In this document: positions 642 to 63,263 of the stretch, one piece after another
Layout: every line of letters begins with the position of its first letter
Position numbering within the stretch: position 1 is the stretch's first letter
Virus record (IMG/VR): IMGVR_UViG_3300044691_000274
Location: 1-64,000 of that record
Reading direction: 5' to 3' (one strand)
DNA from: a virus
DNA length: 64,000 nt
The notes under the pieces: model-generated
Seen by the model: the letters and a program-made list of their open reading frames with translations, nothing else
Told to the model about the DNA's origin: nothing
Database searches by the model: none
Position numbers and translations under genes: made by a program

Positions 642-772
642 ATGCAGTTGACTGCACCTGTGGCCTAGTGGTATCAGTAGGTCTGCACTAGGTTTTGGCA
701 CTTCTTTAAGGTGTCAGGTGGTCAAGGAGGACTGCCTAAAACCGGATCGCATCAATTTCCGGGGGCTAAACG

Positions 773-1228
773 GTGTCCGACGAACAAGAACCACCCGCAC
801 CAGTCGGCCGTGAGAAAGGCTACGCCAACCTGCGTCCGAAGCCATGGAAGAAGGGCCAGTCCGGCAACCCAAGCGGTCGGCCGAAGAACTTGGCGCGCAT
901 CGGCGACCTCTTCACAAAAGAGATGTTCAAGAGCGTCCCCGTCAAGATGGAGGGGATGATCGTGAATAAGCTGCAGGCCGAAATCCTGGTGTCCCAGATG
1001 GTGAAGCAGGCCATCTCCAAGGGCGGCCAGGCGACTAGGCTCGCGCTTCAATTCATGGAGCAGCATGAGGCCCGCGAAGAGCGCCGAGAAGAGCGCAAAG
1101 CCAAACAGATCGCCGAGGGCTTGGTCGAGTTCGACTGGGATGCGGAGAAACATGAGCTAGCCGAGCGGCTGATTAGGAAGGCCGAGCTGTTGCGATTACC
1201 TGCACCGACACCGAAGGACGAAACCTAA
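773..1228 (+). CDS. DUF5681-type protein (possible small terminase or DNA-binding protein)
   Basis: PWKKGQSGNPSGRPK signature; coupled (TAATG) to the downstream methyltransferase. Confidence 0.7.
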   Translation: MSDEQEPPAPVGREKGYANLRPKPWKKGQSGNPSGRPKNLARIGDLFTKEMFKSVPVKMEGMIVNKLQAEILVSQMVKQAISKGGQATRLALQFMEQHEAREERREERKAKQIAEGLVEFDWDAEKHELAERLIRKAELLRLPAPTPKDET

Positions 1229-2784
1229 TGGCCGCCAAGAAGAACTACCACAAGCCCCCGGAAGACCCGCGCACGATTGGCGGAGGTCTCAAGGCTGCCG
1301 GCCGCGAGCGCCGCGAGAAGCTGTCCATGATCATCAACACGACGCCGCGAAACATCCGCAACGATCTGATGCCGTCGATGGAATTGCAGACACTTGCAAT
1401 CAAAGACCTCGTCATGCCCAAGAACATGGTGCGCAAGATGGACGAAGGGCACATCAAGGAGATCGCCAACGGCATCCAGGCGATGGGCTTCTCTGTCCCA
1501 GTGCTGGTCGGCAAGGGCAACGTCATCCTCAACGGCGCCTCATCCGTCAAGGCGGCCGAGAGCCTGGGGATGACCGACGTCCCGTGCGTGCTGCTAAGCC
1601 ACCTCTCCGACGACGAGCAGCGCGTGCTTCGCATCTCCATCAACCGCATGAGCCAGAAGGGAACCTGGGACCTCGACGAACTGAAGAAAGAGTTCGAGGA
1701 GCTGATCAACAACGACGCGCCGCTCGCAAACTCGGGCTTCCAGCCGGATGAGATCGACCAGATCATCATGGGCGACGACCTCGACGTGATCGAAGAGGGA
1801 GACCTCACCCCGCACACCGTCGCGACCGCGCGCGCCGGAGACATCTGGGAGCTTGGCCCGCACAGGCTCATCTGCGCCTCGTCGACCGATCCGGAGACCT
1901 TCAAGGCAATCACCGCTGGCGACCCGCCGGCCCGCTTCGTCCTGACCGACGAGCCATACAACGTCAAGATCGACGGCAACGTGTCGAACAGCGGCCATCG
2001 CGAGTTCCTCATGGCGTCCGGCGAGATGACCGACCAGGAATTCCTCAACTTCAACGAGCAATGGATGGCGGCTGTGCTGCCCTGCCTCTGCGACGGCGGC
2101 ATCCTGGGGACGTTCATCGATTGGCGTGGCCTCGTCACCGTGCAAGTGTCTGCAAACAAGCTCGGCCTGCACCCGCTCAACCTGATCGTGTGGGCAAAGA
2201 CCAACGCTGGCATGGGCGGGCTATATCGCTCCCAGCATGAGCTGCTGCCGCTGTTCAAGGTCGGCAACGCCAAGAACGTCAACAACATCGAGCTTGGCAA
2301 GCGCGGACGCTGGCGCTCCAACATCTGGACCTATCCCGGCGCCTCGTCGTTTGGCTCGGACGCCCAGAAGGGCCTCAAGGATCACCCGACGGTCAAGCCG
2401 ACGCTCATGCTCAAGGACGCCCTGCTCGACCTCACCAACCGGGGTGACATCGTCATCGACCCGTTCCTGGGCTCAGGCTCCACCCTCATGGCTGCTGAGG
2501 CCACAGGGCGCGTTTGCAGGGGCGTGGAGCTGGACCCGATCTTCGTGGACGTCATCATCCGCCGATACGAGCTTGTCAGCAAAGGCGTGCTGGCCCGCCT
2601 CATCTCGACCGGTGAGAGCTTCGCCGAAGTCGTGGCGCGCCGCGCGCTGGAGGCAAGCGAGCAGGTCAAGGCCGCCGCGATCGCAATCTCGACTGAAGAG
2701 ATCGTCCTATCCAAGGACGGAACACCAGAGCCCAGCATCGACGTGGGGCCGTTTGAGGAGAAGACCGATGGTCAAGAAGACTAA
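1228..2784 (+). CDS. ParB-N domain fused to N6-adenine/N4-cytosine DNA methyltransferase (beta class)
   Basis: ParB-like N-terminus (IANGIQAMGFSVPVLV..VILNG); WELGPHRLIC; motif IV read as TDEPY; HPTVKP; motif I DPFLGSGST. Confidence 0.9.
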   Translation: MAAKKNYHKPPEDPRTIGGGLKAAGRERREKLSMIINTTPRNIRNDLMPSMELQTLAIKDLVMPKNMVRKMDEGHIKEIANGIQAMGFSVPVLVGKGNVILNGASSVKAAESLGMTDVPCVLLSHLSDDEQRVLRISINRMSQKGTWDLDELKKEFEELINNDAPLANSGFQPDEIDQIIMGDDLDVIEEGDLTPHTVATARAGDIWELGPHRLICASSTDPETFKAITAGDPPARFVLTDEPYNVKIDGNVSNSGHREFLMASGEMTDQEFLNFNEQWMAAVLPCLCDGGILGTFIDWRGLVTVQVSANKLGLHPLNLIVWAKTNAGMGGLYRSQHELLPLFKVGNAKNVNNIELGKRGRWRSNIWTYPGASSFGSDAQKGLKDHPTVKPTLMLKDALLDLTNRGDIVIDPFLGSGSTLMAAEATGRVCRGVELDPIFVDVIIRRYELVSKGVLARLISTGESFAEVVARRALEASEQVKAAAIAISTEEIVLSKDGTPEPSIDVGPFEEKTDGQED

Positions 2785-61294: not shown

Positions 61295-62083
61295 ATGGCA
61301 AAAAAGGCAGTTAAGGCAGTGATCGACCCGGCCAGCTTCACGCTGATGTCGGGGACCAGCAGCAAGGGGACCTATCTCCCGTTCGCGCGCAAGGGCGACA
61401 TCCTTCTCGGCGTCAAGCCGGAGGGTGCAGTTAACGGCGGCACCATGGGAGTTCCACACACCGTCTATTTCTGCGCTCGCCTGCGCGCGGCGCCGAACAA
61501 CGGACTGCTCGATCAGGCAGCAGAGGGCAACGTTGTCACGCTCAAGCCCAAGGCGACCGGCAAGCCAGGCGATGCCTTCGGCGGCATCGAATGGGACAAC
61601 GACGGCACCTCGCGCGCGTCGACCACGGTCGGAGCGTTCATCCCCGGCGACTTCAGCGTCAGCAACGAGAAGCTGCTCGCGGAGCTGAAGGAGGGCCTGG
61701 CCAACAGCGCCATGACGATCAAGATGGCTGACTACCTGCTCTCGCTCGCGGGGTCCGCCGACCTTCTCCACACGAAGGAGGAAATCGTCGCCTGGCTCGA
61801 CAGCGTCTATGACCCGCAGATCAACGCGGTGTTCGAGGGCATCAGCAAGCAGCTGGAGGTCCAGGCGGCCATGACCGCATCGGTTGGCGCCTTCGGCATC
61901 CAATCGGCCCTGCTCAAGAAAATATACGCCGAGAAGAAGGCGGCAAAGGGCGAGCCGGGGCTGGAGGAGGAGCAAATTCTCGAAGACCACTCGGACGACA
62001 TGGACGCCGAGATGAACGGAGACGACAGTGAATACGCCGTCGACGACAGTGGATACGCCGTCGACCCGCAAGACGGGGAGTGA
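61295..62083 (+). CDS. Hypothetical protein with acidic C-terminus
   Basis: AAGGAGG upstream; D/E-rich tail. Confidence 0.65.
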   Translation: MAKKAVKAVIDPASFTLMSGTSSKGTYLPFARKGDILLGVKPEGAVNGGTMGVPHTVYFCARLRAAPNNGLLDQAAEGNVVTLKPKATGKPGDAFGGIEWDNDGTSRASTTVGAFIPGDFSVSNEKLLAELKEGLANSAMTIKMADYLLSLAGSADLLHTKEEIVAWLDSVYDPQINAVFEGISKQLEVQAAMTASVGAFGIQSALLKKIYAEKKAAKGEPGLEEEQILEDHSDDMDAEMNGDDSEYAVDDSGYAVDPQDGE

Positions 62084-62135
62084 GATCAAGCCCGAAGGAC
62101 CGCGCGTGGTCTGAGGTGGGTTAGGGGTCCCGTTC

Positions 62136-63263
62136 ATGGAGGGGATTGTTCCCGAGGGTGTTGCCCGTTTGCAAGCGGGACCTCGGTGCCCCATTGAAGT
62201 GGGCGGGACCCCGCCGGTATTTTTGAAAGAGCCCGTGTCGATTGACCCTGCCGTAAAAAAGCAACCGCTCGCCCGCTGCATAGAGGCAACCAAGACTCTG
62301 GCTGCGGGCATTTTGCTTTACCGGGTCTGGCAATTCGCCCAGTGGAAGGGCATCGAGCGTGGTGGCCACGAGTGGAGCGTCAACGCAATGGAGCGGTGGC
62401 AGTTCGAGACCGGGCTGACACCAAAGCAGATGCGCGGCGCCTTCGACGAGCTACGCGAACGGAACCTAATCGTCACGGAGAGGCACGTGTTCAAGAACGT
62501 GATCCACGTGTTCGCGCGCCTCGTGCATTCTGCCCCCAAGGGCGAAATCCATTTTGCCCCAGAGGGCATAATCAGTTCTGCCCCAGAGGGCACAATCGAA
62601 GTTGCCCCGTGCGGCACAATCGGTTCTGCCCCAGAGGGCGAAATCATGTGTAAAGAAGAGCTGGAACTTGAGCTGGAACTAGAACTGAAATTGGGCGGAG
62701 CAAAGTCCGCCAATGTACCGGGTGAAGAAAAAGAGGAAACGGAAGAGATGTTGAAATTGAAAAGTCTGAGTGAGTTGATAGTGTTGACGGGAGCTGAGAA
62801 AGCATCCGCTCTACTGCATAAGCCCGTGAAGGATGAGAAAGTCTCTCTAGCGTGGAAGCATGGGTGGGCAAAAGCATATCCGGGGATGTTCTCTGGCCTC
62901 AGCGGCAAGGAGCTGGGCCAACTCCGGAACTTTGAAAAGGGGTGCCCCGCCGGCACCGCGCCCGCGATCCTCCTCTGGGTGCTTTCCGACTGGATCACGG
63001 TCGCGAAGAGCGCGGTGGAAATGAAGGGCAGCAAGGCGACACCAACTATGCCGGACGTCGGTTTTCTCTTGTATCACCGGCCACAGATCGTTATGTTATT
63101 TCAATCCAAGAAAGAGCCCGAAGTGCAAGAGGCGCCAGAGGCTATTATCGCGGCGGAGCAAGTGCAAGTAACTGCAATTCAACCGACCCCAGTCGAGCCG
63201 GAGCCCGCCTCCAAGAAACTGACTTGGGAAGAGCTGTCGGCCATCATCGACAAGGATGACTAA
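62136..63263 (+). CDS. Putative replication initiator (true start may be GTG 62235)
   Basis: wHTH-like segment ETGLT.KQ.R.A...L....LI; internal tandem repeats; upstream of loader and helicase. Confidence 0.6.
   Translation: MEGIVPEGVARLQAGPRCPIEVGGTPPVFLKEPVSIDPAVKKQPLARCIEATKTLAAGILLYRVWQFAQWKGIERGGHEWSVNAMERWQFETGLTPKQMRGAFDELRERNLIVTERHVFKNVIHVFARLVHSAPKGEIHFAPEGIISSAPEGTIEVAPCGTIGSAPEGEIMCKEELELELELELKLGGAKSANVPGEEKEETEEMLKLKSLSELIVLTGAEKASALLHKPVKDEKVSLAWKHGWAKAYPGMFSGLSGKELGQLRNFEKGCPAGTAPAILLWVLSDWITVAKSAVEMKGSKATPTMPDVGFLLYHRPQIVMLFQSKKEPEVQEAPEAIIAAEQVQVTAIQPTPVEPEPASKKLTWEELSAIIDKDD
62526..62645. repeat. Five 24-bp tandem iteron-like repeats, putative replication origin
   Basis: CATTCTGCCCCCAAGGGCGAAATC / CATTTTGCCCCAGAGGGCATAATC / AGTTCTGCCCCAGAGGGCACAATC / GAAGTTGCCCCGTGCGGCACAATC / GGTTCTGCCCCAGAGGGCGAAATC. 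Confidence 0.8.

Follow-up and report, generated by a model that had tools for sequence, protein, structure and literature searches.

The stretch of DNA analysed here, referred to as the window, comprises the first 64,000 nucleotides (nt) of the IMG/VR record IMGVR_UViG_3300044691_000274, a virus of 103,537 bp with terminal repeats and a GC content of 61% (62% in the window, rather than the 64% estimated in an earlier reading made from the letters of the sequence only). All of its approximately 150 called genes lie on the plus strand, and in the window they include genes for the large terminase, a DNA polymerase, the portal, the head protease, and the major capsid protein. Dispersed among them are 38 exact copies of a box, TGCA-N6-TGCA, each located where the sequence-only reading had placed it. 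That reading had expected fewer than about one copy by chance, an estimate borne out by shuffling the window, which yields a mean of 1.03 boxes and a maximum of 4 when dinucleotides are preserved, and a mean of 0.8 when triplets are preserved. The full record contains 69 exact boxes, versus one match to a reversed control pattern. A recount of the spacers gave the same figure as before, 36 of the 38 conforming to R-N-Y-R-N-Y, and 12 more sites in the window (1.6 expected) combine such a spacer with a single mismatch in one arm. Nine of the ten near matches proposed earlier have these two properties, whereas the tenth, at 55107, has one arm mismatch and a spacer of another type.

Symmetry of the site

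The consensus of the box is K-TGCA-R-D-Y/R-H-Y-TGCA-M (the slash marks the centre), with dyad symmetry that reaches the flanking base on each side and a total length of 16 bp. A pyrimidine-purine step is found at the centre, and the core is AT-rich although the genome is GC-rich. A distance of 10 bp separates the TGCA tetramers, which therefore share one face of the helix. The centres occur both ways round, as CA in 22 and TG in 13 boxes of the related phage DLP5, and in a ratio of 18 to 10 in the relative labelled G004. No pairing covariation beyond chance was found in four genomes at arm positions 5/10, 6/9, and -1/+1; in the phage described here, positions 6 and 9 are complementary in 16 boxes, compared to 23.5 expected. 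The box thus consists of two independent half-sites without a pairing constraint, which argues for a dimeric protein on duplex DNA and not for an RNA structure, in agreement with the dyad-symmetric protein site envisaged by the sequence-only reading.

An RNA hairpin or intrinsic terminator is ruled out by this lack of covariation and by the 3' neighbour of the box, which is C or A, with no T-run. A sigma54 promoter, which has the consensus TGGCAC-N5-TTGC and a GG-N10-GC spacing, is ruled out as well, since the distance from GCA to TGC is one base too short in the box and the site is symmetric. A related proposal would make the box an RNA-level element (a small hairpin or a processing site) or a modification or nicking target of the phage methyltransferases; it draws on the placement of all genes on one strand, hence the transcription of every box, on the many boxes between cistrons, and on the presence of two DNA methyltransferase-like genes. 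It is nevertheless hardly credible, with arm complementarity at or below chance, a stem of only 4–5 bp, flanks that are symmetric as in duplex recognition, and methyltransferase genes that are unique to this phage, whereas the box is found clade-wide.

Conservation in related phages

The capsid gene ties the phage to Rhodobacter phage RcZahn, Rhizobium phage RHph_TM16 (TM16), and Stenotrophomonas phages DLP3 and DLP5. Exact boxes number 28 in RcZahn, 17 in TM16, and 38 in DLP5. Among the IMG/VR contigs recovered with the capsid protein, 42 of 46 carry the box, at GC contents from 42% to 66%, and complete IMG/VR relatives contain 6–54 boxes each. Four distant genomes of 110–130 kb (G012–G015), recovered via the candidate reader protein described below, have 3–31 exact boxes, and G016, a 74%-complete fragment, has none. 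The box is conserved over a wide clade of phages of ~90–130 kb, comprising temperate tailed phages and phage-plasmids with all genes in one direction. A scan of viral contigs for TGCAATTAATTGCA added little among the matches listed.

The TGCA arms are constant, with a centre that is lineage-specific (AATCAATT, AATTAATT, AACTAGTT, AGACATCT, or AACAWATT). Arm drift to TGAA...TTCA or GGCA...TGCC is seen in two distant genomes, with boxes of the form [T/G]GCAAT..ATTGC[A/C] in G015 (L294–L299) and TG[A/C]AATTAATT[G/T]CA, as well as TG[A/C]A...T[G/T]CA, in G016 (L300–L303).

Positional conservation in relatives, the absence of which the sequence-only reading would have taken as telling against a function, was found at several places. 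A box precedes the head-protease operon in eight of nine genomes and the winged-helix gene contains one at its 3' end in five of eight; the 3' end of the gene for the ParB-like protein gp1 carries one in five of seven, and the dikinase-like gene contains one in four of nine. In an orthologous epimerase gene, the peptide Ala-Ile-Ser-Cys is encoded with ATATCT in TM16 and with ATCAGT in DLP5, each fitting the box of its own phage. Serine codons are thus swapped to the local spelling of the box, which shows that selection acts on the DNA.

Boxes are mostly intragenic in DLP5 (27 of 38) and G004 (18 of 30), where all three reading frames are used. They are spaced far more evenly than expected at random in DLP5 and G004 (coefficients of variation 0.52 and 0.53, both P<0.0003) and in RcZahn (0.62, P=0.004); in the phage described here, evenness is not significant (0.85, P=0.11). 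Such regularity, together with the intragenic location, would suit a structural lattice, in which the boxes load or anchor a nucleoid protein similar to ParB, Noc, or MatP that organises, condenses, partitions, or shields the DNA, with any effect on transcription being secondary. The maintenance of DLP5 as a phagemid (PMC7326821) and the ParB/Noc-like fold modelled for the candidate reader point in the same direction. However, 71% of the boxes in this phage are intergenic and not significantly even in their spacing, boxes keep a fixed distance of 7–9 nt to -35-like elements, the candidate reader is devoid of a CTP-hydrolysing (CTPase) domain, and neither this phage nor G004 has a member of the ParB-like gp1 family. 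A lattice of this kind is possible but rather unlikely as the main role of the box, and, given the even, intragenic arrangement in some relatives, the boxes may still have a structural function or act as roadblocks.

A 4.5-Mb metagenome-assembled genome (MAG) of Hyphomicrobium (G011) that carries a prophage relative has all 32 of its consensus boxes in one prophage-bearing contig, and none was found in the 4.2 Mb of this single MAG outside that contig. The hosts of box-bearing phages belong to at least three proteobacterial classes. Taken together, these two observations exclude a host regulon, and the reader of the box should therefore be phage-encoded and present clade-wide. A host regulator was rejected as the reader on the zero count in 4.2 Mb of host DNA, obtained from one MAG with its boxes in two blocks of one contig. 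These blocks, at 113–170 kb and 229–264 kb of the 310-kb contig (C4) and thus ~60 kb apart, could derive from two related elements, from rearrangement of a prophage, or from chimeric assembly.

Placement relative to genes and terminators

Genes occupy 88.5% of the genome, yet 46–49 of the 69 boxes, depending on the gene calls, are intergenic (binomial P of about 1e-30). About 24 of the 69 start within ~10 nt of a stop codon, 22 of them 0–10 nt after it and two overlapping it, and many of these end 12–20 nt before the next start codon, so that they take up all the space from the stop to the ribosome-binding site and leave none for a promoter. The sequence-only reading had listed 12 boxes in the window as lying just past a stop; 11 start 0–10 nt after one under our gene calls, and the box at 15236 would qualify only if a doubtful overlapping open reading frame (ORF) were counted. 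The pairs 8855/8900, 21803/21871, and 27068/27127, described in the same reading, are real, and are located upstream of a block of small genes, the portal gene, and the head protease gene, respectively.

Intragenic copies number ~20 genome-wide, compared to ~2 expected, and must therefore also be under selection. Several of them (4995, 56071, 61226, and 63163) fall in the final codons of a gene, just ahead of the next one, and six in the window (1385, 2141, 12865, 17353, 19353, and 32458) are truly mid-gene. A link to terminators was noted for 8 of the 33 terminators of this phage (0.9 expected) and was seen in G002 too, but was not found in other relatives; it was set aside as a by-product of operon boundaries.

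Promoter geometry

In a pooled set of 281 boxes from nine genomes, a combined match to the -35 and -10 elements of an E. coli-type matrix starts exactly 22 nt downstream of the box start in eight cases, versus 0.2 expected per offset. Offsets of -1 and +9 are likewise enriched in this set, but the TTGCAA found there comes from the box itself. Of 174 intergenic boxes, 35 have a TTG 7, 8, or 9 nt past their end (~5 expected) when no -10 model is used, which puts the centre of the box near -50. Individual promoter calls are weak, and the fixed offset from the box to the -35 element is the robust part of this geometry. A box followed after 7–8 nt by a weak -35 element (TTGCCC, TTGCCG, TTGAGA, or TTGATC) is found ahead of the head-protease operon in this phage, RcZahn, G001, G002, and G003. 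Elsewhere, the box overlaps the -35 element or the spacer (11526, 14399, and 73413; coordinates above 64,000 refer to the full record), or is placed at the predicted start site (99060 and 100143, as well as 3264 in DLP5). Three promoters of the type TTGCAA-16/17-TATNNT had been suggested by the sequence-only reading; two pass a position weight matrix (PWM) scan and none appears in a stricter consensus scan, leaving them weak. The genome-wide, transcription-linked role proposed in that reading is supported by the fixed spacing to -35-like elements.

The recurrent arrangement ahead of the head-protease operon in five genomes, together with the peak at 22 nt, would also be expected if a phage activator recruited the host RNA polymerase to weak middle or late promoters from about -50. 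Such an activator is improbable as the general explanation, as many boxes lie over the -35 element, the spacer, or +1, which are positions of a repressor, many others have no promoter at all (those between a stop and a ribosome-binding site, or mid-gene), classical class I activators are not positioned at -50.5, and a palindrome carries no direction. Activation may nonetheless play a part, given that the location of the box near -50 is conserved at weak late promoters.

Candidate readers of the box

The sequence-only reading found no obvious repressor in the window, which holds; the candidates beyond it are the protein encoded at 73482–74717 and an XRE-type helix-turn-helix (HTH) protein encoded at 99815–100129. 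The former is present in all nine genomes compared, as gp66 in RcZahn and gp067 in DLP5. An exact or degenerate box is found in its promoter in seven of these nine, overlapping the -35 element in some and lying 8 nt upstream of it in others. Among 50 additional IMG/VR loci encoding a homologue, 20 show an exact box in the 220 nt ahead of the gene. In the AlphaFold model, residues ~140–290 form a central helical domain with a predicted local distance difference test score above 90. Two structural aligners pair this domain with the DNA-bound forms of ParB, Spo0J, KorB, Noc, P1 ParB, and SopB, at Z scores of 3.5–7.0. In VIA-align, the matches are to ParB-parS (6s6h, Z 7.0), Spo0J (1vz0, Z 6.8, root-mean-square deviation 3.4 over 102 residues), and KorB bound to its operator (1r71, Z 5.8, 107 of 114 residues; 8qa8, Z 4.7); the similarity is moderate, and the Rubisco factor Raf1 scores equally high. 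The Foldseek probabilities are 0.63 for 6s6h and 0.41 for 7ol9. Residues 28–76 are modelled as a SAP or helix-extended-helix motif (Z ~4), followed by a long, acidic, disordered linker rich in Ala, Pro, and Lys. A short basic paralogue is encoded at 75826–76368.

The XRE protein, gp135 in RcZahn, matches HTH_31/HTH_3, and its gene is 2 kb from the integrase. Its operon is preceded by boxes at 98990 and 99060, one of which coincides with a predicted +1, and a further box is found at 100143. Operators of the 434 class share the 4-N6-4 architecture, and the box could accordingly be viewed as a 14-bp operator with fixed outer tetranucleotides, read by a classical immunity repressor with many operators. 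The family is found in this phage, RcZahn, TM16, G001, G002, G003, and G005, yet iterative searches found none in DLP5, G004, and G010, even though DLP5 has 38 boxes and G004 has 30, and this assignment is distinctly improbable.

An HTH candidate in a protein resembling A1, named in the sequence-only reading, possibly corresponds to the winged-helix protein encoded at 62136–63263. It stands as a universal candidate reader, known as gp51 in RcZahn, but resembles a replisome organiser, and the boxes might then mark multiple helicase-loading or origin sites. Besides its universal presence and winged-helix N terminus, the location of its gene next to a helicase-loader-like gene and DnaB would fit, as would the box at the 3' end of that gene; origins inside initiator genes are familiar from lambda O and SPP1 G38P. 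Still, 30–70 sites are far above any known phage origin set, no AT-rich unwinding region adjoins the boxes, and the promoter geometry would be left unexplained, making replication sites very improbable.

The in-window ParB-domain protein named as a candidate in the sequence-only reading, encoded at 1228–2784, is a methyltransferase fusion that contains the sole ParB_N domain of this phage. No homologue of it was found in the nine relatives compared, though all carry the box, and a family limited to this phage is unlikely to provide the conserved reader. Other candidates were rejected on their distribution. The ParB-like gp1 family of RcZahn and DLP5 is missing from this phage and G004, and among these phages only RcZahn has an Ogr/Delta zinc finger. 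A PadR-type reader was rejected after six-frame searches of six phage genomes (this phage and five relatives) gave no match to PF03551. The universal 67-residue protein encoded at 14186–14389 matches the N terminus of a DLP5 protein annotated as 'transcriptional repressor' (in DLP5 and G004 it is fused to a zinc ribbon), and its model is weakly RelE/ParE-like (E-value 0.2, TM score 0.45); it is not a DNA binder on that evidence. No function was obtained from PDB, Pfam, or PHROG for the universal small proteins encoded at 65185–65634 and 70140–70469, and PDB profile searches with four family alignments returned nothing useful.

Proposed mechanism and comparison with known systems

Considering the site, its symmetry and conservation, its restriction to phage DNA, and its geometry, the box is best explained, with a chance that we regard as about even, as the operator for a dimeric protein made by the phage, which would bind DNA sequence-specifically and control transcription genome-wide. 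Each half of the predicted dimer would read one K-TGCA-R half-site, the two being separated by one turn of the helix, with a flexible, AT-rich pyrimidine-purine centre between them, and the bound dimers would act on host sigma70-type transcription along the entire genome. A box over the -35 element, the spacer, or the start site may occlude some promoters. At about a fifth of intergenic boxes, the position 7–9 bp upstream of -35 would correspond to the 'proximal' geometry of KorB operators on plasmid RK2. Boxes without promoters, either intragenic or between a stop and a ribosome-binding site, could serve as roadblocks or as loading or anchoring points. The net role would probably be genome-wide silencing and the timing of a one-way, 100-kb transcription unit, chiefly in lysogeny. 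A tyrosine integrase is encoded at 96571–97701 (E-value 7.5e-15), ~264 nt downstream of a box, and this phage is thus likely to be temperate and to integrate, in contrast to the phagemid DLP5; both DLP3 and DLP5 have been described as phagemids (PMC7326821). Staged ejection and partitioning, also raised in the sequence-only reading, found no specific support.

The most likely reader in this scheme would be the universal protein encoded at 73482–74717, along with its short basic paralogue. Several observations weigh against the operator interpretation and this assignment. The even spacing and mostly intragenic sites of DLP5 and G004 are no less compatible with a structural role than with the regulation of individual genes. 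A strict consensus promoter scan of 8.5–28.4 kb found no excess of promoter-like sites, the promoter calls depend on matrices of the E. coli type, and the gene coordinates come from a simple in-house gene caller. As for the protein, its orthologous promoter is box-less in G001 and G004, Z scores of 5.8–7.0, with Raf1 as high, are within the range in which a common helical arrangement is possible, and it is acidic overall, with an isoelectric point of ~4.7. No Pfam family was found in it or in 38 homologues at E-values up to 1, nor was the N-terminal ParB/Srx CTPase domain of ParB, so that a sliding clamp of the KorB type is not possible. Covariation of the putative recognition helix (YRKAM or xRKAR) with the arm variants TGAA and GGCA is a hint only and unconvincing. 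Because the fold match is moderate and equalled by Raf1, and both Pfam families and the CTPase domain are missing, the protein is treated as a lead only, with about one chance in three of being a ParB/KorB-like reader of the box. We can speculate, more tentatively, that the phages carry a private 'chromatin', in which a protein of the ParB/KorB fold without a CTPase clamp would occupy 30–70 palindromes, placed by selection even within genes and at even distances, silencing, insulating, and timing the 100-kb unit.

The closest model for such an operator is the KorB-OB system of the IncP plasmid RK2 (1r71, 8qa8), in which 16-bp operators, located 4–10 bp upstream of promoters or far off, serve the global silencing of the plasmid (PMC11790492). 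Both systems have a palindrome of 13–16 bp dispersed over a mobile genome, with some sites near promoters (4–10 bp for proximal OB; 7–9 bp to -35 here) and others distal, and with a link to global silencing, which is proposed for the phages; the modelled central domain of the candidate reader also aligns with the DNA-binding domain of KorB, as given above. They differ in that RK2 has ~12 sites, whereas the phages have 30–70, many of them intragenic and, in some lineages, evenly spaced. The candidate reader has neither a CTPase domain nor a Pfam match and would therefore not be expected to slide as a clamp. The two sites differ in sequence, and no KorA-like partner was identified here. ParB-parS, Noc with its binding sites, and SopB-sopC are also dimeric HTH proteins on palindromes of 14–16 bp, with ~70 dispersed sites in the case of Noc, and match the fold modelled for the candidate reader; they differ in requiring a CTPase domain, in their segregation or nucleoid-occlusion roles, and in a far lower site density.

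Mycobacteriophage L5 stoperators and the C1 operators of phage P1, the latter a plasmid prophage of ~94 kb, are dozens of dispersed repressor sites, many of them in promoter-less intergenic gaps; sites of both kinds are asymmetric, and stoperators are oriented. Of the traits of L5-type stoperators tested here, location in short promoter-less intergenic gaps is shared, whereas asymmetry and a single orientation are not. Boxes are also found mid-gene, are evenly spaced in some relatives, and are kept across distant phages with hosts in several classes, making the analogy drawn by the sequence-only reading a loose one. Cluster O mycobacteriophages have more than 30 copies of one 17-bp palindrome per phage, of unknown function; these phages and the sequence of their palindrome are unrelated to those considered here. 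The consensus ATGCAA-N4-TTGCAT obtained by chromatin immunoprecipitation sequencing for Vibrio AphA, a PadR-family protein with two thirds of its peaks intragenic near starts (PMC6855506), has the identical core TGCAA-N4-TTGCA. AphA is a mostly repressing winged-helix dimer, but is a host regulator, whereas six of the phages have no PadR gene and the tested host MAG has no such sites.

A full-text literature search with the spellings of the box matched only the work on AphA and found no description of the phage motif, which is not mentioned in the papers on RcZahn (PMC8601537) and DLP3 (PMC7326821). If a single phage protein reads all of these boxes, it would be the master switch of an entire widespread clade, made up of large phages (temperate ones and phage-plasmids) whose hosts are Alpha-, Beta-, and Gammaproteobacteria and which include the therapy candidates DLP3 and DLP5. 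The array would allow long-range or global control of transcription to be tested directly in a virus, with a cis-code that is simple to mutate and under selection strong enough to override intragenic codon choice. The 'chromatin' variant, if true, would represent a new mode of genome-wide control in viruses and in a large clade previously unrecognised. The density of TGCA-N6-TGCA is a practical marker of the clade and its prophages in metagenomes.

Features of the window

Table 1. Exact boxes in the window and two genes considered as sources of a reader.
Feature	Position	Strand	Remarks
Box	643..656		Intergenic, 1 nt past stop; includes TTGACT
ParB_N + N6/N4 DNA methyltransferase fusion	1228..2784	+	Pfam assignment; ParB candidate of the sequence-only reading
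Box	1385..1398		Mid-gene in ParB_N-methyltransferase gene
Box	2141..2154		Mid-gene in ParB_N-methyltransferase gene; reverse complement of 1385 copy
Box	3645..3658		3' part of ORF 3287-3724
Box	4322..4335		4 nt past stop, 1 nt ahead of ATG of C5-methylase-like gene
Box	4995..5008		Last codons of 4337-5020; large terminase start 8 nt on
Box	8855..8868		6 nt past terminator-like T-run; partner of 8900
Box	8900..8913		Intergenic; second member of pair with 8855
Box	11217..11230		Intergenic
Box	11526..11539		6 nt past stop; left arm gives TTGCAA-16-TATGGT ahead of dikinase-like gene; not called in strict scan
Box	12865..12878		Mid-gene in dikinase-like gene; equivalent site in DLP5 and G002
Box	14399..14412		9 nt past stop; TTGCAA-16-TATCGT ahead of phosphatase 1; upstream box also in TM16 and G005
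Box	15236..15249		Intergenic; TTGCAA-17-TATGAC, below PWM threshold
Box	17353..17366		Mid-gene in 17244-18242
Box	19353..19366		Mid-gene in DNA polymerase gene
Box	21515..21528		1 nt past polymerase stop; TTG 8 nt downstream
Box	21803..21816		16 nt past terminator-like T-run; upstream of portal gene
Box	21871..21884		Portal start 27 nt on; portal gene has upstream box in 4/9 genomes
Box	24380..24393		Between stop (4 nt) and ribosome-binding site; start 18 nt on
Box	24854..24867		Start codon 12 nt on
Box	27068..27081		Ahead of head-protease operon; TTGCCC 8 nt downstream; site has box in 8/9 genomes
Box	27127..27140		Second box upstream of head protease
Box	27711..27724		3' end of protease gene; spacer not RNYRNY; possibly chance
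Box	29446..29459		Major capsid start 14 nt on
Box	30476..30489		9 nt past capsid stop; followed by terminator-like hairpin
Box	30873..30886		Intergenic; followed by terminator-like hairpin
Box	32458..32471		Mid-gene in 32301-32951
Box	33520..33533		Gene 33590 starts 56 nt on; box likewise precedes its RcZahn and G001 homologues
Box	36637..36650		3 nt past terminator-like T-run
Box	36869..36882		7 nt past stop; gene at 36934 begins 51 nt on; box conserved in RcZahn and G001
Box	43732..43745		~42 nt upstream of tail-gene start
Box	49589..49602		Immediately past stop; ATG at 49624, 21 nt on
Box	51442..51455		Between stop (4 nt) and start (16 nt)
Box	51928..51941		Stop 9 nt before; start 17 nt after
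Box	56071..56084		Last codons of 55137-56096; ATG at 56099, 14 nt on
Box	58832..58845		Between stop (4 nt) and start (12 nt)
Box	61226..61239		Last codons of AAA ATPase gene; next gene 55 nt downstream
Winged-helix, replisome-organiser-like protein	62136..63263	+	Universal; no Pfam family; alternative candidate reader
Box	63163..63176		3' end of winged-helix gene; helicase-loader-like gene 87 nt on; equivalent place in 5/8 genomes

Several other genes were noted in the window. The gene at 25107–27035 encodes a 642-residue head protein with an Acb1 anti-CBASS phosphodiesterase domain (E-value 1.9e-33) and a weak MuF-like match; it possibly represents a virion-delivered counter-defence and has homologues in DLP5, G001, G002, and G004. 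A clade-universal block at 11582–19082 comprises the truncated pyruvate-phosphate-dikinase-like gene, two tyrosine-phosphatase-like genes, and genes for two unknown proteins of ~340 residues, as well as for a CsrA-like protein (13908–14189, weak Pfam match) and the 67-residue protein discussed above. The short C5-type methyltransferase-like gene at 4337–5020, with motif I DLFCGAGG, overlaps the terminase start and is unique to this phage. The product of 58858–59328 corresponds to the N-terminal domain of dATP/dGTP diphosphohydrolases (E-value 4e-23), a family linked to phage genomes with modified purines. An endonuclease VII homologue is encoded at 13712–13891, a tRNA-Asn gene is located at 3734–3809, and the DUF5681 protein encoded at 773–1228 is possibly the small terminase.

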